A stretch of DNA of 64,000 nucleotides from Candidatus Enterousia sp. GTDB taxonomy: Bacteria > Pseudomonadota > Alphaproteobacteria > Rs-D84. Numbering within the stretch: position 1 is the first letter of the stretch; every line of letters starts with the position of its first letter. The translations under genes and the position numbers were made by a program. The stretch is taken from positions 20,591-84,590 of the forward strand of contig JAZKZR010000007.1 of the NCBI GenBank assembly GCA_045612805.1. The letters run 5' to 3'. The notes under the pieces were generated by a model. It ran no database searches and was not told the DNA's origin. It saw only the letters and a program-made list of their open reading frames with translations. Below are positions 7,762 to 15,113 of this stretch, piece by piece.

Positions 7762-8226
7762 ATGATAGCAATCTTGGTCGAATCCAAAAATGGGTATATG
7801 GCAAAAGGTCCAAACGATAATATGTCGTGGGCACCGGTGCTGGATAAACAGATATTCCGACTGCTTACAACCACCAATAAGGTGTGTATATGTTCAAAAC
7901 ATACTTATACTCTGTTGCCACAAAAGATGTTGTCTGACCCCGCACGAGAGTTTATTGTGGCAGAAAAAGTTGGCAGTAAATCATTGCCAGCGTTGAACAT
8001 CGTACATCCAAACGCACACTTAATTGGTGGCCCAGAATTCTTGAAGTCGGCTTATAATTTGTCCGTGATTGATACGATTATAATTAGCACAACTAAAACC
8101 CCGATTGAACCGAATGAACGGTATAAAAATCCGTTTAATGGGAATTTACCCAATCCAATTACGACAATAAATTTTGGTGAATTGACGGTTAAAATGTATA
8201 AAACCCAACATGGGAAAGAAAAATAA
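7762..8226 (+). CDS. Divergent dihydrofolate reductase-like protein
   Basis: MIAILVESKNGYMAKG..DNMSW....DKQIFRLLT matches the DHFR N-terminus including the acidic substrate-binding Asp; LIGGPEF matches the IGG loop; GRKT is replaced by SKHT. Confidence 0.7.
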   Translation: MIAILVESKNGYMAKGPNDNMSWAPVLDKQIFRLLTTTNKVCICSKHTYTLLPQKMLSDPAREFIVAEKVGSKSLPALNIVHPNAHLIGGPEFLKSAYNLSVIDTIIISTTKTPIEPNERYKNPFNGNLPNPITTINFGELTVKMYKTQHGKEK

Positions 8227-8282
8227 ACACGGAAAACACTTGAAAATCAAAATATTGTCATGTAAAGTATGTGTCACGGAAC

Positions 8283-8358
8283 GCCGGTGTAGCTCAGTTG
8301 GTAGAGCATCTCATTCGTAATGAGGGGGTCGTAAGTTCGAGTCTTATCACCGGCACCA
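8283..8358 (+). tRNA. tRNA-Thr(CGT)
   Basis: GCCGGTG acceptor stem, D arm AGCTCAGTTGGTAGAGC, anticodon loop TT-CGT-AA, T loop GTTCGAG, encoded ACCA. Confidence 0.97.
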
Positions 8359-8360
8359 CC

Positions 8361-8404
8361 AAAAATTGTTATCGCGCACAATAAAGTGCGCGATTAAAAT
8401 TTTT
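8361..8404 (+). terminator. tRNA-Thr terminator hairpin
   Basis: ATCGCGCAC-aataaa-GTGCGCGAT with A-rich and T-rich flanks. Confidence 0.7.
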
Positions 8405-8410
8405 GAGTGC

Positions 8411-8470
8411 CTCGCCGTAGCATTGGTCGCAACCAAAGAAAAAAACTTCACACTTATCGGCGAAGGCGGG
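8411..8470. repeat. Palindromic repeat copy A, interrupted by a 34 nt insert
   Basis: CTCGCCGTAGCATTGG (8411-8426) and CGAAGGCGGG (8461-8470) rejoin into a palindrome like the copies at 20697 and 54091. Confidence 0.6.
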
Positions 8471-8504
8471 CTGTAGCAAATTGTTACCGCGCACAAAACA
8501 TTAA

Positions 8505-9113
8505 TTACCTAAGTTTTGTTTTCATCAATTCATACTGTCCATGTGCAATTTCCGCCAAATAATCCGAAAGTTCCGGTGAAATTTTGCAAATTGGTTTCTG
8601 TGTGCCGTCCGGCATTTTTTTTGAAATATACCCATTCCCGCGCATACCACCGCACCACTTTGTTCCGGCGGGCGAAAATTGAATAACAGTGTCACCAAAT
8701 TCACACGATGCCGGCGCCAGCGGTTGATGTTCTGTTTTTTCAAAATAAGAAACGGTAAGCACAGGGGCAAACTCTAACTTTGCAACAATGTCGCCAATTT
8801 GTTTTTTATCTATTTCGGGTTGCACATTAATGGGCATGGTATATGAATTGTCATATTTTTGTTTGCGCCATTCGTTGTATGTCCAGGCCCGATTAAAAAA
8901 ATAATCAGGCAACACATGCACTTTGTTTTTCATAAAAACATTGGTATGTTTTCTTATGCGTTTGCCAAGTTCAAGTGGTTCGTCTATTTTTCGTGGGTCG
9001 GCAATTTCGCATCGTACTTTTTGTAATGCATAGACGGGCGCCCAAATCGCAACGAACGGCTTTAACAACCGACCCATAAAATACGCAAGATTTTCAATTT
9101 TTTCATCTTTCAT
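8505..9113 (-). CDS. Hypothetical protein (ORFan-like, about 202 aa)
   Basis: Start MKDEKIENL at 9113 with AAGGA RBS; the longer ORF-track start overlaps ileS and its leader and is rejected. Confidence 0.75.
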   Translation of the reverse strand: MKDEKIENLAYFMGRLLKPFVAIWAPVYALQKVRCEIADPRKIDEPLELGKRIRKHTNVFMKNKVHVLPDYFFNRAWTYNEWRKQKYDNSYTMPINVQPEIDKKQIGDIVAKLEFAPVLTVSYFEKTEHQPLAPASCEFGDTVIQFSPAGTKWCGGMRGNGYISKKMPDGTQKPICKISPELSDYLAEIAHGQYELMKTKLR

Positions 9114-9168
9114 GCTGAAATCCTTTTTTGTTGATTTTATATTAAATATACGGTTTGTCAAAAAATAC

Positions 9169-9197
9169 TTGAAATATTGTATTTTGTATAATAAACT
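9169..9197 (+). promoter_or_regulatory. Candidate sigma70 promoter of the ileS leader
   Basis: TTGAAA (9169-9174), 17 nt spacer, TAAACT (9192-9197); predicted start near 9204-9205, at the leader ATG. Confidence 0.55.
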
Positions 9198-9204
9198 ACT
9201 GCGC

Positions 9205-9240
9205 ATGATGAACAAAAAAACAATCATTATTATAAGATAA
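9205..9240 (+). CDS. Ile-rich attenuator leader peptide MMNKKTIIIIR
   Basis: ATG ATG AAC AAA AAA ACA ATC ATT ATT ATA AGA TAA; four tandem Ile codons about 85 nt upstream of the ileS start. Confidence 0.85.
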   Translation: MMNKKTIIIIR

Positions 9241-9291
9241 TCTGGCCTTGCGCTTTGGCGATGGCCCGGGCGCAGATGCGCCCGTTTTTTT
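9241..9291 (+). promoter_or_regulatory. ileS attenuator (antiterminator plus terminator)
   Basis: Terminator CGGGCGC-agat-GCGCCCG-T7 (9267-9291); TTGCGCTT (9248-9255) can pair with GGGCGCAG (9268-9275), the terminator 5' arm. Confidence 0.82.
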
Positions 9292-9319
9292 ATGATAATT
9301 GCAAATAATGGAGTAAAAA

Positions 9320-12300
9320 ATGGCATATCCGAAGACCGAACCAAAGGCCGATTTTCCGAAACTGGAACATGAAATAATAGAGTTTTGGCGCGGGGACGAT
9401 ACCTTCCACAAAAGTTTGAACAAAACGAAACTTGGGCATCCGTTCACATTTTACGATGGGCCACCGTTTGGAAATGGATTGCCACATTGGGGGCACCTTG
9501 GTGTGTCGGCGGTCAAAGATATGGTTGCGCGCTTTCAAACTATGCACGGTCGGTACGTTGACCGGGTTCTTGGGTGGGATTGTCATGGCCTGCCGGCGGA
9601 GGCATCTGTTGAAAAAAAACAAGGCCGCACCGCCAAGGATATTGTTGGTTCTGACGGTATGGCGCATTTCTGTGATTTATGCCGTTCCGATGTAACAACA
9701 TATACCAACGAATGGTTGCGTTTCATTGAACGCGTTGGTCGTTGGGTTGATGGTGGCGATGAATATGGTTATCGCACAATGGATAAAAACTATATGGAAT
9801 CTGTGATTTGGGCATTAAAACAAATGTATGAACGTGGGTTGCTCTATAAAGATTTCAAAGTGAACCCGTTTGATTGGAAATTGGGAACGGTGCTTTCTAA
9901 TTCCGAAGCGTCAAGCGAATATCAAGACATCGTTGATGATACTGTGACGGTTTGGTTTGAACTCTCAAACGGCGACCGTGCGATTGCGTGGACAACAACA
10001 CCGTGGACACTGCCGGCGAATTCGGCGTTGGCGGTAAATAACAATATGAAATATGTTCGTATGCGTCACGATGACGGCCATGTTTATGTTCTGGCGGAAT
10101 CGCGACTTTCGGCATATGACAAGATTTTTGCAAACTCCGAAAACCTGGGGACGGTTATGGGGGCCGACTTGGTCGGTTTGCATTATAAACCGATTTTCCC
10201 ATATTATACCGATTTGGCAAAGGATGGTCACGGGCTATATACGGTGATTTCCGGCGACTACGTGTCGGACAGTGACGGAACCGGCATCGTTCATATCGCG
10301 CCGGCGTATGGTGAAGACGACTATATCGTGGCCAAGGCGATTGACCCGCAATTCCCGGTTATATTAAATGTTGACGATTACGGCAACTTTGATAACACGG
10401 TCACCGAATGGGCGGGCGAAAACATATTTGTTGCCAATCCAAAGATTATTGATTGGTTGCGGGCAAATGGAATCTTGGTCAAAAAAGACCAGCACCGGCA
10501 CAGTTATCCGTTCGGCCCACGCAGCAAGGAAAAACTTATCTATCGTGCGACCGATGCTTGGTATATCGATGTTCCGAAAATTCGCGAATGCCTTGTTGAA
10601 ATAACCAAAAACGACACAACATGGACATCGGCGGGCAATCGGTTCTTGTCCTGGATTGAAAATGTGCGCCCGTGGGGAATTTCGCGCAACCGTTTCTGGG
10701 GGGTGCCATTACCGATTTGGGAACGGAACGGCGAATATAAAATCTTTGGTTCAATCGCGGAACTCGAAGAATTCTTTGGTGTAAAGATTGACGATTTACA
10801 TCGTCCGACATTGGATGCACTAACGCGTGACGGTTGGAAACGCATACCCGATGTTTTGGATTGTTGGTTTGAATCGGGTTCAATGCCGTTTGCGGCCCTG
10901 CACTATCCGTTTGAAAACAAAGATACATTTGAAAAAACTTTTCCGGCGGATTATATCATCGAAGGTCAAGACCAAACACGTGGATGGTTTTATTCTCTAA
11001 TGGTAATAGCGGTCGCGCTGTTTGATAAACCGGCGTTCCGTGTTGTTTCGGCAAATGGTATGGTTGTTGATGAAAACAAAAGAAAGTTTTCAAAATCGCT
11101 TCATAACTTTGTTGACCCATCGGAACAACTTGAAACATATGGTGCGGATGCGGTTAGACTTTATATTTTAGGCAGTAATTTTATGAAGGCCGAACCTGTT
11201 CCCGTTGATAAAGAAGGCAAGGTTTTTGCCGAACCGATAAAGACGATTTTAACTCCGCTTTGGAACGCATATCATTTCTTTACATTATATGCGAATGCTG
11301 GAAACATAACGGCACACGATGTATCGGGGACAAATGCACGAAATGTTTTGGATAAATATATTTTGTCGGAAACAGGCGTTTTGGTTGATACGGTTGGCAA
11401 TGCACTAAACGAATATAAACCGGACACGGCGGTCAAAGAATTTGTGCGATTCCTGGATATCCTGAACAATTGGTATATCCGTCGTTCGCGCACGCGTTTT
11501 TGGGACGAAGATACAACCGCGTTTAATACGCTCTATACGGTGCTTTGTACCGTATGCCGCTGTTTGGCACCGCTTGCGCCGTTTGTGTCCGAATACATCT
11601 ATAAAAATTTAACGGGTGCGGAATCGGTGCATTTGACTGATTGGCCGGTGGCAAACGCGGTTGATATGAAAATCGTCGACGATATGCGCCGTGTCCAAGA
11701 AATCGTGTCTGTTGGAAAGCAATTGCGTGAACAATACAAATTGCGTAATCGTTTGCCACTGAACAAATTGACGGTTGCGGGTGGCACACCTATGACAGAA
11801 TACACGAATATCATCCGTGATGAATTAAATGTGAAATCTGTTGAATGGGTCGATAACACGGCAAAGGTCGCGGACAGTTTCATATATTTAATCACACCGA
11901 AAATCGGTGCGCGTTTGGGCGGTGCGTTGCGTGAAATTGCACCGGCCGTGAAACGGGGTGACTACGAATTGTCGGGCGATAAGTTGGTTGTCGGCGATTA
12001 TACACTGAACGCGGATGAATTCGAAAACCGTCTGAATATCCGCGATGGTGTGACGGGTATGCCGTTGCCGGATAATACCGCGGTTGTCATTTTGGACGCT
12101 GAATTAAATTCCGAATTGATTGCCGAAGGTTTGGCGAACGACGCGTTACGCTTTATCCAAGATACGCGCAAAGCGTTGGGTTTGGATGTGTCCGACCGAA
12201 TAAATCTTACCTATACGGCGGATTTGGCGTTGTCCGGCGCGTTGGAACAGCATAAAAAGATGATAATGTCGAACGCGCTTGTCCGTGAAATGTCGCCGGG

Positions 12301-12364
12301 TTCGGCCGAACACTTTACGGAAATCGAAGGGTATAACTTTGGAATCTCTATACAAAAGGCTTAA
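9320..12364 (+). CDS. ileS: Isoleucine--tRNA ligase, type 2 (long, archaeal/eukaryote-like form)
   Basis: FYDGPPFGNGLPHWGH, GWDCHGLP, AWTTTPWTLPAN, GTGIVHIAPAYGEDD, WGISRNRFWG, DCWFESGSMP, KFSKS, NWYIRRSR; no C-terminal zinc finger. Confidence 0.97.
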   Translation: MAYPKTEPKADFPKLEHEIIEFWRGDDTFHKSLNKTKLGHPFTFYDGPPFGNGLPHWGHLGVSAVKDMVARFQTMHGRYVDRVLGWDCHGLPAEASVEKKQGRTAKDIVGSDGMAHFCDLCRSDVTTYTNEWLRFIERVGRWVDGGDEYGYRTMDKNYMESVIWALKQMYERGLLYKDFKVNPFDWKLGTVLSNSEASSEYQDIVDDTVTVWFELSNGDRAIAWTTTPWTLPANSALAVNNNMKYVRMRHDDGHVYVLAESRLSAYDKIFANSENLGTVMGADLVGLHYKPIFPYYTDLAKDGHGLYTVISGDYVSDSDGTGIVHIAPAYGEDDYIVAKAIDPQFPVILNVDDYGNFDNTVTEWAGENIFVANPKIIDWLRANGILVKKDQHRHSYPFGPRSKEKLIYRATDAWYIDVPKIRECLVEITKNDTTWTSAGNRFLSWIENVRPWGISRNRFWGVPLPIWERNGEYKIFGSIAELEEFFGVKIDDLHRPTLDALTRDGWKRIPDVLDCWFESGSMPFAALHYPFENKDTFEKTFPADYIIEGQDQTRGWFYSLMVIAVALFDKPAFRVVSANGMVVDENKRKFSKSLHNFVDPSEQLETYGADAVRLYILGSNFMKAEPVPVDKEGKVFAEPIKTILTPLWNAYHFFTLYANAGNITAHDVSGTNARNVLDKYILSETGVLVDTVGNALNEYKPDTAVKEFVRFLDILNNWYIRRSRTRFWDEDTTAFNTLYTVLCTVCRCLAPLAPFVSEYIYKNLTGAESVHLTDWPVANAVDMKIVDDMRRVQEIVSVGKQLREQYKLRNRLPLNKLTVAGGTPMTEYTNIIRDELNVKSVEWVDNTAKVADSFIYLITPKIGARLGGALREIAPAVKRGDYELSGDKLVVGDYTLNADEFENRLNIRDGVTGMPLPDNTAVVILDAELNSELIAEGLANDALRFIQDTRKALGLDVSDRINLTYTADLALSGALEQHKKMIMSNALVREMSPGSAEHFTEIEGYNFGISIQKA

Positions 12365-12367
12365 AAA

Positions 12368-12829
12368 ATGAAAGAAAATAAATTTTTGTTTTATGGTTGT
12401 GTTGTTATAACATTTCTGTGTGCAATGTGGTTGTGTTTTCGTATGCCGGTTGACCTAGAAATTTCTTATGATGTCGAACCGGTGGAATTTTACGAATCAA
12501 ACGAATCAAATGAACGGGTGGATTCGGAAGATTTCTTTATCGATGTCCAATCTGATGATAATGTGACCGAAGAAAAGAAAAACGATGATAAAGAAATCGC
12601 ACACGGCAATTTTACTGGATGTTCTTCGCGTTTCAAATCAAAAATTTGGGCGCGCGATTTGGACGACGGGCAATCGGTTGACCGGTATTGGGGTACAAAC
12701 GAAATAATATGCGTGTGCGAAACTGGCGGCGAAAGATTCGAAAAAAAGATGGTGTATGAATATTCGTCCGCACCGGATGCAACCGAAACAAATTGCAATA
12801 AAAAATGTGCGGAAATCTGCGCCGAATAA
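12368..12829 (+). CDS. Hypothetical membrane-anchored protein with Cys-rich C-terminal domain
   Basis: N-terminal hydrophobic anchor, acidic linker, six Cys in the last 70 aa; tightly packed between ileS and nth. Confidence 0.7.
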   Translation: MKENKFLFYGCVVITFLCAMWLCFRMPVDLEISYDVEPVEFYESNESNERVDSEDFFIDVQSDDNVTEEKKNDDKEIAHGNFTGCSSRFKSKIWARDLDDGQSVDRYWGTNEIICVCETGGERFEKKMVYEYSSAPDATETNCNKKCAEICAE

Positions 12830-12830
12830 A

Positions 12831-13481
12831 ATGATAACACCGCGGGATTTTTTCGAAATTGTTCCAAAAAATCTGAATATGGAAATTCGTTCGGAATTGT
12901 ATTCGGTAAACGAATTTACATTTGCGGTTGCCGTAATTTTGTCGGCCCAGGCAACCGATAAAAAGGTGAACGAGGTCACACCCGCCCTATTCCGCGTGGC
13001 CCCAACACCGCAAAAAATGTTGGAATTGGGAATTGACGGTTTGAAAAAACATATCCGGGTTATTTCATTTTTTAATAACAAGGCAAAAAATATCATCGCA
13101 TTGGCCGAACGATTAAAAGAAATTCCAACGAACAAAGATAATTTTGTTTTTCCACAGAAATATCACGACCGTGCGGAACTTATAAAATTGCCAGGCATCG
13201 GGCAAAAAACCGCAAATGTTATCACAAATGTTTTATGGAATGCGCCAAATATCGGGGTTGATACGCATGTTTTCCGCCTTTCACACCGTTATGGTTGGGT
13301 GCCGAATTCTGCAAACACACCCGAAAAGGTTGAAGTTGAATTATTAAAGAAAATTCCAAAAAAATATCACGCGATAACCAATCATGTGATGGTACTGTTT
13401 GGGCGATATACCTGCACCGCCCTGCGCCCGAAATGTGCAACCTGTCCCCTTGCAAAAATCTGCGATTGTAAATTATTTTAA
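12831..13481 (+). CDS. nth: Endonuclease III
   Basis: AVILSAQATDKKVN, HhH LPGIGQKTANV, VDTHVFR, Fe-S motif C-x6-C-x2-C-x5-C. Confidence 0.96.
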   Translation: MITPRDFFEIVPKNLNMEIRSELYSVNEFTFAVAVILSAQATDKKVNEVTPALFRVAPTPQKMLELGIDGLKKHIRVISFFNNKAKNIIALAERLKEIPTNKDNFVFPQKYHDRAELIKLPGIGQKTANVITNVLWNAPNIGVDTHVFRLSHRYGWVPNSANTPEKVEVELLKKIPKKYHAITNHVMVLFGRYTCTALRPKCATCPLAKICDCKLF

Positions 13482-15113
13482 TTTACGAAGAACCACCATA
13501 ATTCCGGCAGGGGTCATACCGGGGATTTTTTGTAATTCTGCGATATTTGCCGGGCGAACGCGTTTCAATTTTTCGCAAAGTTCGCGGGTCAGCCCTGGCA
13601 TATTATCATAGTCAAAATCCGTCGGAATTTTTATTTCTTTGTCGCGCCGATACGATTCTATTTCCCGGTTGTTTCGCATAATATACCCGGCATAGAATTT
13701 ATCATTTTCGGAAATTTTCCCGGCTTTTTTATTCATTTTGTTCAAAAAAGCCGGCAATTCGATTAAACCCAAATCAACCCCAATTTGCCCAATTCGCGCA
13801 ATCGCATTATCCGCACGCAGGTTCAATCGATATTCCGCCCGTGATGTGAACATACGATACGGTTCGTCCACCCCCAGTGTTGTTATGTCGTCAATCATCA
13901 CGCCAATCATAGAATTTGTTCGGTCTAAATCCAATGTTGGCGCGGATAACGCAAACGCGGCGGCATTTGCGCCCGCAACCAAACCTTGGGCGGCGGCTTC
14001 TTCATACCCGGATGTGCCGTTTATTTGCCCGGCAAAGAAAAGCCCATCCCGTCCGCGCGCCATCAAATGTTTATCAATCGCGCGCGCATCAATCGCATCA
14101 TATTCAATCGCGTATCCATATCGTGCAAAGCGTGCATTTTCCAAACCCGGAATTGTGCGAATCCATTGGTCTTGGATATCGGCACCAAAACTTGTTGAAA
14201 TACCGTTCGGGTAAATTAAATCACTGGAAAGCCCTTCGGGTTCCAAGAAAACATGATGTGTTTCGTGGTCGGGAAAACGCATAACCTTGTCTTCGATTGA
14301 TGGGCAATACCGCGGGCCTATTCCGGTTATGTCGCCGTTATACATCGGCGCGTTTTTTATGTTTTGCCGAATAATTTCGTGTGTTTCGCCTGTGGTATGT
14401 GTGATATAGCATACCGCGTGATTGTTGTCCACATCGCACCCATCGGAAAACCAATCGTGTGGAGTGTCCGGCAATTGTTCTTCGCATACCGAAAAATCAA
14501 TAGAATCACGATAAATTCGTGCCGGCGTTCCGGTTTTTAGTCGAATTATATCAAACCCAAAATCGCGCAATACGCCGGAAATCACCGTATCGGGCGATTG
14601 GTGTTCGCCATTGTCCATAATTCGTCCGGACGGAATTTTTTCGCCGCCCATTGTGACAATCCCATGCAAAAAAGTCCCGGTTGTGAATACGACGGATTTC
14701 GCCGTATAGGCGCCGTTTATAATTTTGTTTTCTAAATCAATTGATTCAACTTTTTCAAATTGCACGGTTAAATTTTTTTGATTCTGTAAAATTTTCATAA
14801 CCGCGTTATGATAAAGTTCACGGTCAATCTGGGCGCGTAATGCCTGTGTCGCCGGGCCATGCGACGCATTAAGGGTTCGAAAATGAATTCCCGCCATATC
14901 TGCGGCGCGCGGCATAACACCACCAAGCGCGTCCATTTCCGCAACCATTTGCGATTTACCCGGCCCACCAATCGACGGGTTGCAAGACATCGCCCCCAAA
15001 TCAGATTCGCGCATTGTAATCAGCAGTGTCCTTGCACCGCGCCGCGCCGCGGCCGCCGCTGCTTCGGTTCCGGCGTGTCCACCACCAATAACAATGACAT
15101 CAAAATTTTGCAT
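13473..15113 (-). CDS. mnmG: tRNA uridine-5-carboxymethylaminomethyl synthesis enzyme MnmG (GidA)
   Basis: VIGGGHAGTEAA, MSCNPSIGG, RLKTGTPAR, GPRYCPSIEDK, AGQINGTSGYEEAAAQG, EPYRMFTSRAEYRL. Confidence 0.97.
   Translation of the reverse strand: MQNFDVIVIGGGHAGTEAAAAAARRGARTLLITMRESDLGAMSCNPSIGGPGKSQMVAEMDALGGVMPRAADMAGIHFRTLNASHGPATQALRAQIDRELYHNAVMKILQNQKNLTVQFEKVESIDLENKIINGAYTAKSVVFTTGTFLHGIVTMGGEKIPSGRIMDNGEHQSPDTVISGVLRDFGFDIIRLKTGTPARIYRDSIDFSVCEEQLPDTPHDWFSDGCDVDNNHAVCYITHTTGETHEIIRQNIKNAPMYNGDITGIGPRYCPSIEDKVMRFPDHETHHVFLEPEGLSSDLIYPNGISTSFGADIQDQWIRTIPGLENARFARYGYAIEYDAIDARAIDKHLMARGRDGLFFAGQINGTSGYEEAAAQGLVAGANAAAFALSAPTLDLDRTNSMIGVMIDDITTLGVDEPYRMFTSRAEYRLNLRADNAIARIGQIGVDLGLIELPAFLNKMNKKAGKISENDKFYAGYIMRNNREIESYRRDKEIKIPTDFDYDNMPGLTRELCEKLKRVRPANIAELQKIPGMTPAGIMVVLRKLK

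Follow-up and report, generated by a model that had tools for sequence, protein, structure and literature searches.

A 64,000-nucleotide stretch of DNA from Candidatus Enterousia sp. (contig JAZKZR010000007.1, positions 20,591 to 84,590; hereafter the window) carries, directly upstream of the isoleucyl-tRNA synthetase (IleRS) gene ileS, a short open reading frame (ORF) with a run of Ile codons and, behind it, a set of alternative RNA hairpins that ends in an intrinsic terminator. We conclude that this element is likely a ribosome-mediated (leader-peptide) transcription attenuator, which would raise the transcription of ileS when the charging of tRNA-Ile is low. This reading is drawn from the conservation of the upstream ORF (uORF) and its Ile run, a fixed geometry, mutually exclusive hairpins, the spacing of the promoter and known precedents. 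Judged by its conservation in relatives, the element is real and strongly conserved, and it is almost certainly regulatory.

The leader ORF (9205-9240, plus strand) encodes the peptide MMNKKTIIIIR and reads as two ATG codons, AAC AAA AAA ACA, the Ile run ATC ATT ATT ATA, AGA and the stop codon TAA. The four tandem Ile codons (9223-9234, plus strand), the putative regulatory codons, use all three Ile triplets, and an alternative start at 9208 would give the peptide MNKKTIIIIR (9208-9240, plus strand). The intrinsic terminator lies at 9267-9291 on the plus strand (-14.4 kcal/mol), where CGGGCGC (9267-9273) pairs with GCGCCCG (9278-9284) around an AGAT loop and is followed by seven T residues (9285-9291). 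It is the top-ranked terminator-like site in the interval 8000-13500, and its end is 29 nt upstream of the ileS ATG. Both the 11-codon ORF with its four tandem Ile codons and the 7-bp GC terminator with its T-tract had been proposed at these positions in a first-pass annotation of the window, and both are present there. When both strands of the whole window were scanned for short ORFs that contain a run of at least three identical residues and have a G+C hairpin and a T-run within 90 nt downstream, a single short ORF fitted the description.

The putatively regulated gene, ileS (9320-12364, plus strand), is preceded by a GGAG Shine-Dalgarno sequence (9310-9313, plus strand) 6 nt upstream of its ATG. 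Its 1014-aa product matches TIGR00392 at 746 bits (cutoff 621), as well as PF00133, PF08264 and DUF5915, and belongs to the type-2, MupA/MupB-like class of IleRS with the DUF5915 domain at the C-terminus. The gene upstream of the leader (8505-9116) is on the opposite strand and is separated from ileS by an intergenic gap of 203 nt; thus, ileS needs a promoter inside this intergenic region.

The same arrangement recurs in relatives. Together with the window, 25 loci from a genome collection and from metagenome contigs form a family of 26, each with a uORF of 10-11 codons upstream of ileS in the form M-x4-I(3-5)-x-TAA. In the genome collection, the nearest IleRS genes come from uncultured Alphaproteobacteria of rumen and gut. 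Nine of the 12 loci inspected there carry an M-x4-IIII-x-TAA uORF about 105-115 nt upstream of the ileS start, with an almost identical G+C-rich segment and a T-run behind it; these carriers are L001-L006, L008, L046 and a more divergent locus, L010, with an IleRS 44% identical to that of the window (44-87% for the genome-collection loci of the family). The other three inspected loci, L007, L009 and L011, lack the leader, and at L007 and L011 ileS abuts the preceding gene. Among relatives of the L010 enzyme we found four divergent carriers (L201, MNNKNIIIIE; L202, MTNRTIIIIN; L203, MFNTAIIIIQ; L206, MNNKSIIIIE), and five further relatives of that enzyme are without the leader.

The metagenome members were collected with a pattern that describes only the RNA and holds no information on Ile codons (GCGCTT-N8-16-GGGCGC-N3-7-GCGCC-N3-TTT). 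This pattern gave 120 metagenome matches, 12 of which have at least three AUH codons just upstream. These 12 all come from low-G+C contigs, carry the uORF in frame with TAA and precede the coding sequence of an IleRS N-terminus. The remaining 108 matches have no Ile run upstream, and nearly all of them lie in high-G+C contigs. A search for Ile-rich short ORFs at all 80 genome loci found no such leader in the high-G+C alphaproteobacteria L021, L024, L026 and L038 or in other groups; Ile-rich short ORFs at L019, L049 and L079 were rejected, being located inside the 3' end of the upstream protein gene. A further locus, L207, has just upstream of a complete L010-type ileS, itself without a leader, a 57-codon fragment (762-935) that corresponds to the N-terminus of the IleRS type of the window and L007 (MAYPKTDSRANFPELEK...) and then stops. 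From its sequence, this fragment looks like a remnant of an ileS replacement.

What is kept across the family is the Ile coding, together with its distance from the RNA structure. The gene downstream of the uORF is the cognate synthetase gene ileS in all 26 loci. The Ile run is 3-5 codons long in every locus and begins at codon 6 in most members, and exactly one sense codon stands between the run and TAA in 26 of 26. The 106 Ile codons of the family have T at the third base in 54 cases, A in 37 and C in 15, but never G; AUA opens the run in 23 of the 26 loci and is then followed by AUU or AUC. Residues 2-5 of the peptide vary freely, and the invariant GCGC of the RNA structure starts 11-13 nt after the U of UAA. 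With the third base variable, Ile kept throughout and residues 2-5 changing freely, the pattern indicates selection on codon identity. It suggests that translated Ile codons are under selection, held at a fixed distance from the RNA structure, and it does not fit selection for the peptide, for base composition or for AU-richness. An alignment of ileS upstream regions had been proposed in the first-pass annotation as a check, and in it the Ile run, the terminator and the complementary antiterminator segment are all strongly conserved.

The RNA downstream of the uORF can adopt three hairpins on the plus strand. P1 (9244-9266, -12.2 kcal/mol in minimum free energy (MFE) folds) pairs 9244-9251 with 9258-9266 around a GCUUUG loop; it lies directly upstream of the terminator, was absent from the first-pass account, and is likely an anti-antiterminator and possibly a hairpin at which RNA polymerase pauses. 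The antiterminator (9248-9275, -17.3 kcal/mol) pairs 9248-9259 with 9264-9275 through 11 pairs and one U.C mismatch. It overlaps P1 and takes in the 5' arm of the terminator together with two loop bases, and is therefore mutually exclusive with both P1 and the terminator, which are compatible with each other. This layout is the 1:2 / 2:3 / 3:4 scheme of classical, trp-like attenuators. The first-pass annotation had assigned the sequestering of the terminator 5' arm to 9248-9255 (UUGCGCUU); this segment does pair with 9268-9275, and the full pairing is longer, extending over 9248-9259 and 9264-9275.

Folding of the family agrees with two alternative states. In 20 of 22 leaders that were cut before the 3' arm of the terminator, the MFE fold is the antiterminator, and 17 of 22 full leaders have P1 plus the terminator as their MFE fold. 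The terminator is conserved in all family members. Antiterminator pairing is possible in 87.9% of alignment cells, versus 30-58% when the partner strand is slid, with six core pairs invariant and only one flanking pair alternating (U-A in nine, C-G in four and U-G in four). P1 pairing holds in 80% of alignment cells, versus 27-49% in slid controls, and the native P1 arms fold at -11.15 kcal/mol versus -10.16 +/- 0.35 kcal/mol for arms swapped between members, a value matched by 14 of 5000 permutations that were not corrected for phylogeny. The invariance of GCGCUU and GGGCGC would be expected if one segment must pair with two partners, which is an argument from design and not a proof by covariation. 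In the MFE fold of 9200-9325, the Ile run (9226-9237) also pairs with the A/U stretch that follows the U-tract (9288-9299), enclosing P1 and the terminator. The two strands of this pairing consist entirely of A and U and may thus pair by chance; similar TTATAATAA stretches occur downstream of the terminator in several relatives.

The leader is probably transcribed from a promoter so close that its mRNA has no 5' untranslated region (UTR). The promoter scan identified a sigma-70-like promoter (9169-9197, plus strand) with a -35 box TTGAAA (9169-9174), a 17-nt spacer and a -10 box TAAACT (9192-9197). The -10 box ends 7 nt upstream of the ATG at 9205, which places the predicted transcription start at about 9204-9205, and no GGAG-like Shine-Dalgarno sequence is found in the 16 nt upstream of this ATG. 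In 21 of the 26 loci, a sigma-70-like -10 box ends 6-10 nt upstream of the leader ATG, exactly 7 nt in 15 of them; the family promoter is usually TGGAAA or TTGAAA, a 17-nt spacer and TAnnnT. A Shine-Dalgarno-like sequence precedes the leader ATG in only one of the 26 loci. The promoter-to-ATG spacing, the lack of a Shine-Dalgarno sequence and the start of the Ile run at codon 6 together suggest a leaderless uORF. The earlier suggestion that the leader is leaderless, made from the window alone, thus gains support from a conserved spacing.

We then propose a model for the control of ileS. Transcription would begin at or beside the A of the leader ATG, and the 11-codon leader would be translated as a leaderless mRNA. 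The nascent RNA could fold in two ways. In one, P1 (9244-9266) and the terminator (9267-9291) form, and transcription would end 29 nt before ileS; in the other, the top of the P1 5' arm, the P1 loop and the terminator 5' arm form the antiterminator. When charged tRNA-Ile is plentiful, the ribosome would reach UAA with its leading edge at the invariant GCGC that opens the antiterminator strand, and after its release P1 could re-form; either way the terminator would form and ileS expression would be low. When Ile-tRNA is scarce, owing to Ile limitation or to too little IleRS activity, the ribosome would linger at the last Ile codons and open only the base of P1, leaving the antiterminator strand free. 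The antiterminator would then fold before the terminator 3' arm exists, and RNA polymerase would read into ileS. Either tRNA-Ile isoacceptor could trigger this switch, because AUA and AUU/AUC are both conserved.

To place the ribosome on these structures, we mimicked it by masking the RNA from the 5' side, with the edge of the mask counted in nt from the U of UAA. When the leaders were truncated ahead of the terminator 3' arm, the antiterminator was dominant until the mask reached about +12; with the mask at +12 to +15 it collapsed from -17.3 to -11.8, -9.8 and -6.0 kcal/mol. A ribosome that has UAA in its A site would be expected to have its leading edge at about this place (+11 to +14). In full leaders at equilibrium, the mean probability of the antiterminator was 0.17 with the edge at +2 or less, rose to a maximum of 0.36-0.39 at +8 to +10, and was 0 at +13 or more. 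The customary footprint extends about 10 nt past the codon that is read, which puts the leading edge about 12 nt downstream of the first base of the codon in the A site. With this footprint, a ribosome at the last Ile codon would have its edge at +6, with the base of P1 open and the antiterminator free, while one at UAA would have its edge at +12, so that the antiterminator would be trimmed and the terminator would gain a toehold, which is the classical logic that the first-pass annotation had proposed. If the footprint is the shorter, 'helicase' one, a ribosome that has reached the stop codon would disrupt P1 but leave the antiterminator in place, and the modelled logic would be inverted. The first-pass annotation had the antiterminator arm covered by a ribosome at the stop. 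This holds only marginally: the first base of the arm, 10 nt beyond the U of UAA, lies at the outermost limit of the footprint of a terminating ribosome. With coverage this marginal, the direction of the switch rests on physiology and not on geometry.

Several points weigh against the attenuator as we propose it. The Ile codons lie upstream of P1 and not within it, unlike those of the trp leader, and P1 would not be disturbed by a ribosome positioned on Ile1-Ile3. Of the antiterminator, a ribosome that stands at the stop codon masks no more than the outer 2-4 pairs, and under the smaller 'helicase' footprint the antiterminator is most favoured with the ribosome at exactly this position. Covariation, which the first-pass annotation had expected in both helices, is weak because the core of the hairpin is invariant: no change is seen in the six core pairs of the antiterminator or in the terminator stem, and the evolutionary support consists mainly of conserved pairing potential. 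For the antiterminator, only the covariation score exceeds most column shuffles (19 of 500 reached it), and the counts of compensatory changes for the antiterminator and P1 were indistinguishable from, or barely above, those of column shuffles. When the outer partners of the antiterminator, bases of the terminator loop by which it is extended, were swapped, no effect was seen (1452 of 5000), and the fold of the whole region is not unusually stable (z = -1.64). Finally, four members (L004, L005, L046 and L099) have no such promoter upstream of the leader; in these the ATG comes 8-11 nt after the end of a tRNA-Thr(CGU) gene, and thus leaderless initiation is neither universal nor obligatory.

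The same geometry could serve the opposite logic, in which a ribosome on UAA melts P1 and allows read-through and an Ile stall keeps P1 and leads to termination, so that ileS would be transcribed only while Ile-tRNA supports translation. The P1 5' arm, at +3 to +13 after the U of UAA, does lie within the footprint of a terminating ribosome, with the antiterminator core starting at +11 to +13, and with a helicase-type mask edge of +8 the probability of the antiterminator is maximal, being lower at +2 or less, the position of Ile1-Ile3 stalls. However, a ribosome at the stop codon makes the antiterminator collapse if its edge is set by the nuclease or toeprint footprint (+12 to +13), and shutting off ileS at low Ile-tRNA would be self-defeating. 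To our knowledge, every characterised synthetase control, namely pheST attenuation, T-boxes and thrS, raises the enzyme when charging falls, the opposite of what this logic would give. The Ile run lies one codon from the stop in all 26 loci, a placement that is relevant only if it makes a difference where the ribosome stalls with respect to P1. We thus favour the classical direction, both because known synthetase controls raise the enzyme as charging falls and because such a fixed distance is relevant only if a stalled ribosome must reach P1, and we regard the inverted logic as unlikely. Were this unlikely logic nevertheless true, ileS transcription would be a feed-forward read-out of Ile-tRNA supply or of the capacity for leaderless translation.

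It might also be argued that control depends on translation without being specific for Ile, with the element working as a sensor of growth rate or of coupling, or as a fixed partial terminator, and with AUH codons kept only for an A/U-rich, unstructured 5' end that aids leaderless initiation. The N-terminal leader codons of the window are A-rich as well (AAC AAA AAA ACA), and leaderless mRNAs favour unstructured 5' regions (PMC4117421). AU-richness would, however, also permit AAU, UAU, UUA and AAA, yet all 106 codons of the runs are in-frame AUH and none is AUG; that the regulated gene is the cognate synthetase in every locus likewise speaks against a non-specific role, which we consider very unlikely. 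A direct sensor, in which the RNA binds tRNA-Ile in the manner of a T-box or IleRS in the manner of the thrS operator and the small ORF is incidental, appears extremely improbable. RNA-level sensing of tRNA-Ile at this gene is common, as a T-box core (GGTGGTACCGCG) lies 60-220 nt upstream of orthologous type-2 ileS at 15 actinobacterial loci. But the element here spans just about 87 nt, lacks both the T-box core motif and a conserved anticodon-like loop, and its region has no Rfam match even at E-values up to 10; an untranslated RNA would also have no need for the conserved frame, Ile codon identity and stop position. Mimicry of tRNA was rejected as well, since an anticodon-like GAU in the antiterminator loop occurs in the window only and is not conserved.

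Searches for known RNA families bear on the same question. A permissive Rfam scan of 8500-10000 (E up to 10) returned only chance-level matches to SNORA13, AgvB and TeloSII_ncR30, of which AgvB scored 17.6 bits versus a threshold of 56, and an Rfam gathering scan of the whole window returned four tRNAs and nothing else. No Rfam amino-acid leader family (Thr, Leu, His, Trp, Phe leaders and similar) matched in the region or in the window. A T-box riboswitch was rejected on the permissive scan of 8500-10000 and on the absence here of the GGTGGNACCRCG core, which is present before the actinobacterial orthologues. An Rfam gathering scan of 16 type-2 ileS loci from other phyla also reported no T-box, a negative that reflects a problem of sensitivity and not a true absence. 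A regular-expression search located the core 60-220 nt upstream of ileS at L014, L015, L028, L029, L033, L034, L039, L041, L045, L048, L051, L052, L060, L063 and L065. Five of these 15 actinobacterial loci had been included in the gathering scan, with no T-box reported; short actinobacterial T-boxes escape the default search.

Classical attenuation is textbook knowledge for amino-acid biosynthesis operons and is rarely documented for synthetases, for which pheST is the standard case, and the known RNA control of ileS is the T-box. Attenuation of aminoacyl-tRNA synthetase operons is reportedly covered by Lopatovskaya et al. 2010 (Mol Biol 44:128). The first-pass annotation knew of no experimentally shown Ile-codon attenuator on ileS, and we found none described in the literature searched; there is a partial precedent in Caulobacter crescentus, also an alphaproteobacterium, where CCNA_03934, a small coding sequence (CDS) from ribosome profiling, was named ileS leader CDS (PMC4117421). 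CCNA_03934 served in that study only as a negative control and its regulation was not studied there, and Caulobacter ileS (2,910 nt, followed by a lipoprotein signal peptidase gene) differs from that of the window in type and context. Leaderless translation is common in Caulobacter (PMC4117421).

By analogy, the nearest functional counterparts would be the pheST attenuator of Escherichia coli and the leaderless trpL attenuator of Sinorhizobium meliloti. Like the element described here, E. coli pheST, with the pheM leader peptide, is a synthetase operon with a short leader rich in cognate codons, alternative hairpins and an intrinsic terminator. It is gammaproteobacterial and has Phe codons, a 14-codon leader and a conventional 5' UTR, and there is no sequence or Rfam relationship between the two. 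In S. meliloti, trpL (rnTrpL) has tandem regulatory codons near the stop and a three-hairpin scheme that ends in a terminator. This leader is alphaproteobacterial and leaderless, its mRNA starting at the trpL AUG (PMC10117765, PMC6614838) as predicted here, and its peptide is likewise very short (14 aa). It differs in its target, the biosynthetic trpE(G), in its Trp codons and in having trans-acting functions of the small RNA and the peptide; unlike in S. meliloti trpL, the regulatory codons of the ileS element lie wholly upstream of hairpin 1.

The actinobacterial ileS T-box, first described in a study that also names pheST as the proteobacterial example of synthetase attenuation (PMC1262725), is a leader RNA before the same type-2 ileS that senses the charging of tRNA-Ile. 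It differs from the present element in binding the tRNA directly with no leader translation, in its greater length, and in acting on translation initiation and not on termination. According to a preprint (bioRxiv 10.1101/834739), mycobacterial leaderless short polycysteine ORFs, which also have runs of a single codon type, are amino-acid-responsive attenuators of downstream genes. They differ in being actinobacterial, in their Cys codons and in their targets, and an intrinsic-terminator switch is not assumed for them.

The surroundings of the leader deserve mention. A tRNA-Thr(CGU) gene lies upstream of the Ile leader in the window (8283-8358, plus strand) and in six relatives (L003-L006, L046 and L099). 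In L004, L005, L046 and L099 the leader ATG follows the tRNA CCA at 8-11 nt with no promoter between them, which implies a tRNA-leader co-transcript in which the attenuator terminator also ends the tRNA transcript. In the window, the insertion of the unassigned minus-strand ORF at 8505-9116 (203 aa), which has a strong divergent promoter (9161-9134), separates the tRNA from the leader. Just downstream of the tRNA, 8371-8394 forms a perfect 9-bp palindromic hairpin (ATCGCGCAC...GTGCGCGAT) with T-runs on both strands, whose sequence suggests a terminator that works in both directions, for the tRNA on one side and the convergent minus-strand ORF on the other. Further upstream, a 154-aa ORF (7762-8226, plus strand) matches a PHROG dihydrofolate reductase family (E = 3e-19) and has no Pfam match at the default threshold. 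Downstream, a 153-aa ORF (12368-12829, plus strand) begins 4 nt past the ileS stop, has no Pfam, NCBIfam or PHROG match, and overlaps the 5' end of an HhH-GPD (endonuclease III-like) ORF (12756-13481, plus strand). In the relatives L203, L206 and L207 the HhH-GPD gene follows ileS directly, which makes either the start of the HhH-GPD ORF or the reality of the 153-aa ORF doubtful.

If the proposed attenuator is correct, type-2 ileS would have two independent leaders that sense tRNA-Ile, a T-box in Actinobacteria and an Ile-codon attenuator in a clade of uncultured Alphaproteobacteria associated with gut, rumen and termites. The mechanism itself is conventional and would change no principle; distinctive are the target, type-2 ileS, the very small size and the probable leaderless start. 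The first-pass annotation had added that stalling on Ile codons would also sense inhibition of IleRS, for example by mupirocin. This has little force here, since the enzyme belongs to the type-2 MupA/MupB-like class, which is usually poorly inhibited by mupirocin. With AUA kept beside AUU and AUC, the switch would read both tRNA-Ile isoacceptors, including the lysidine-dependent decoder of AUA. The element measures about 87 nt from the predicted transcription start to the end of the U-tract and, being probably leaderless, would offer a compact test of how a 70S-initiated ribosome and RNA polymerase are synchronised. Rfam holds no matching model, and the family could be added to annotation resources as an Ile-codon leader that may let these bacteria match ileS transcription to the charging of tRNA-Ile.

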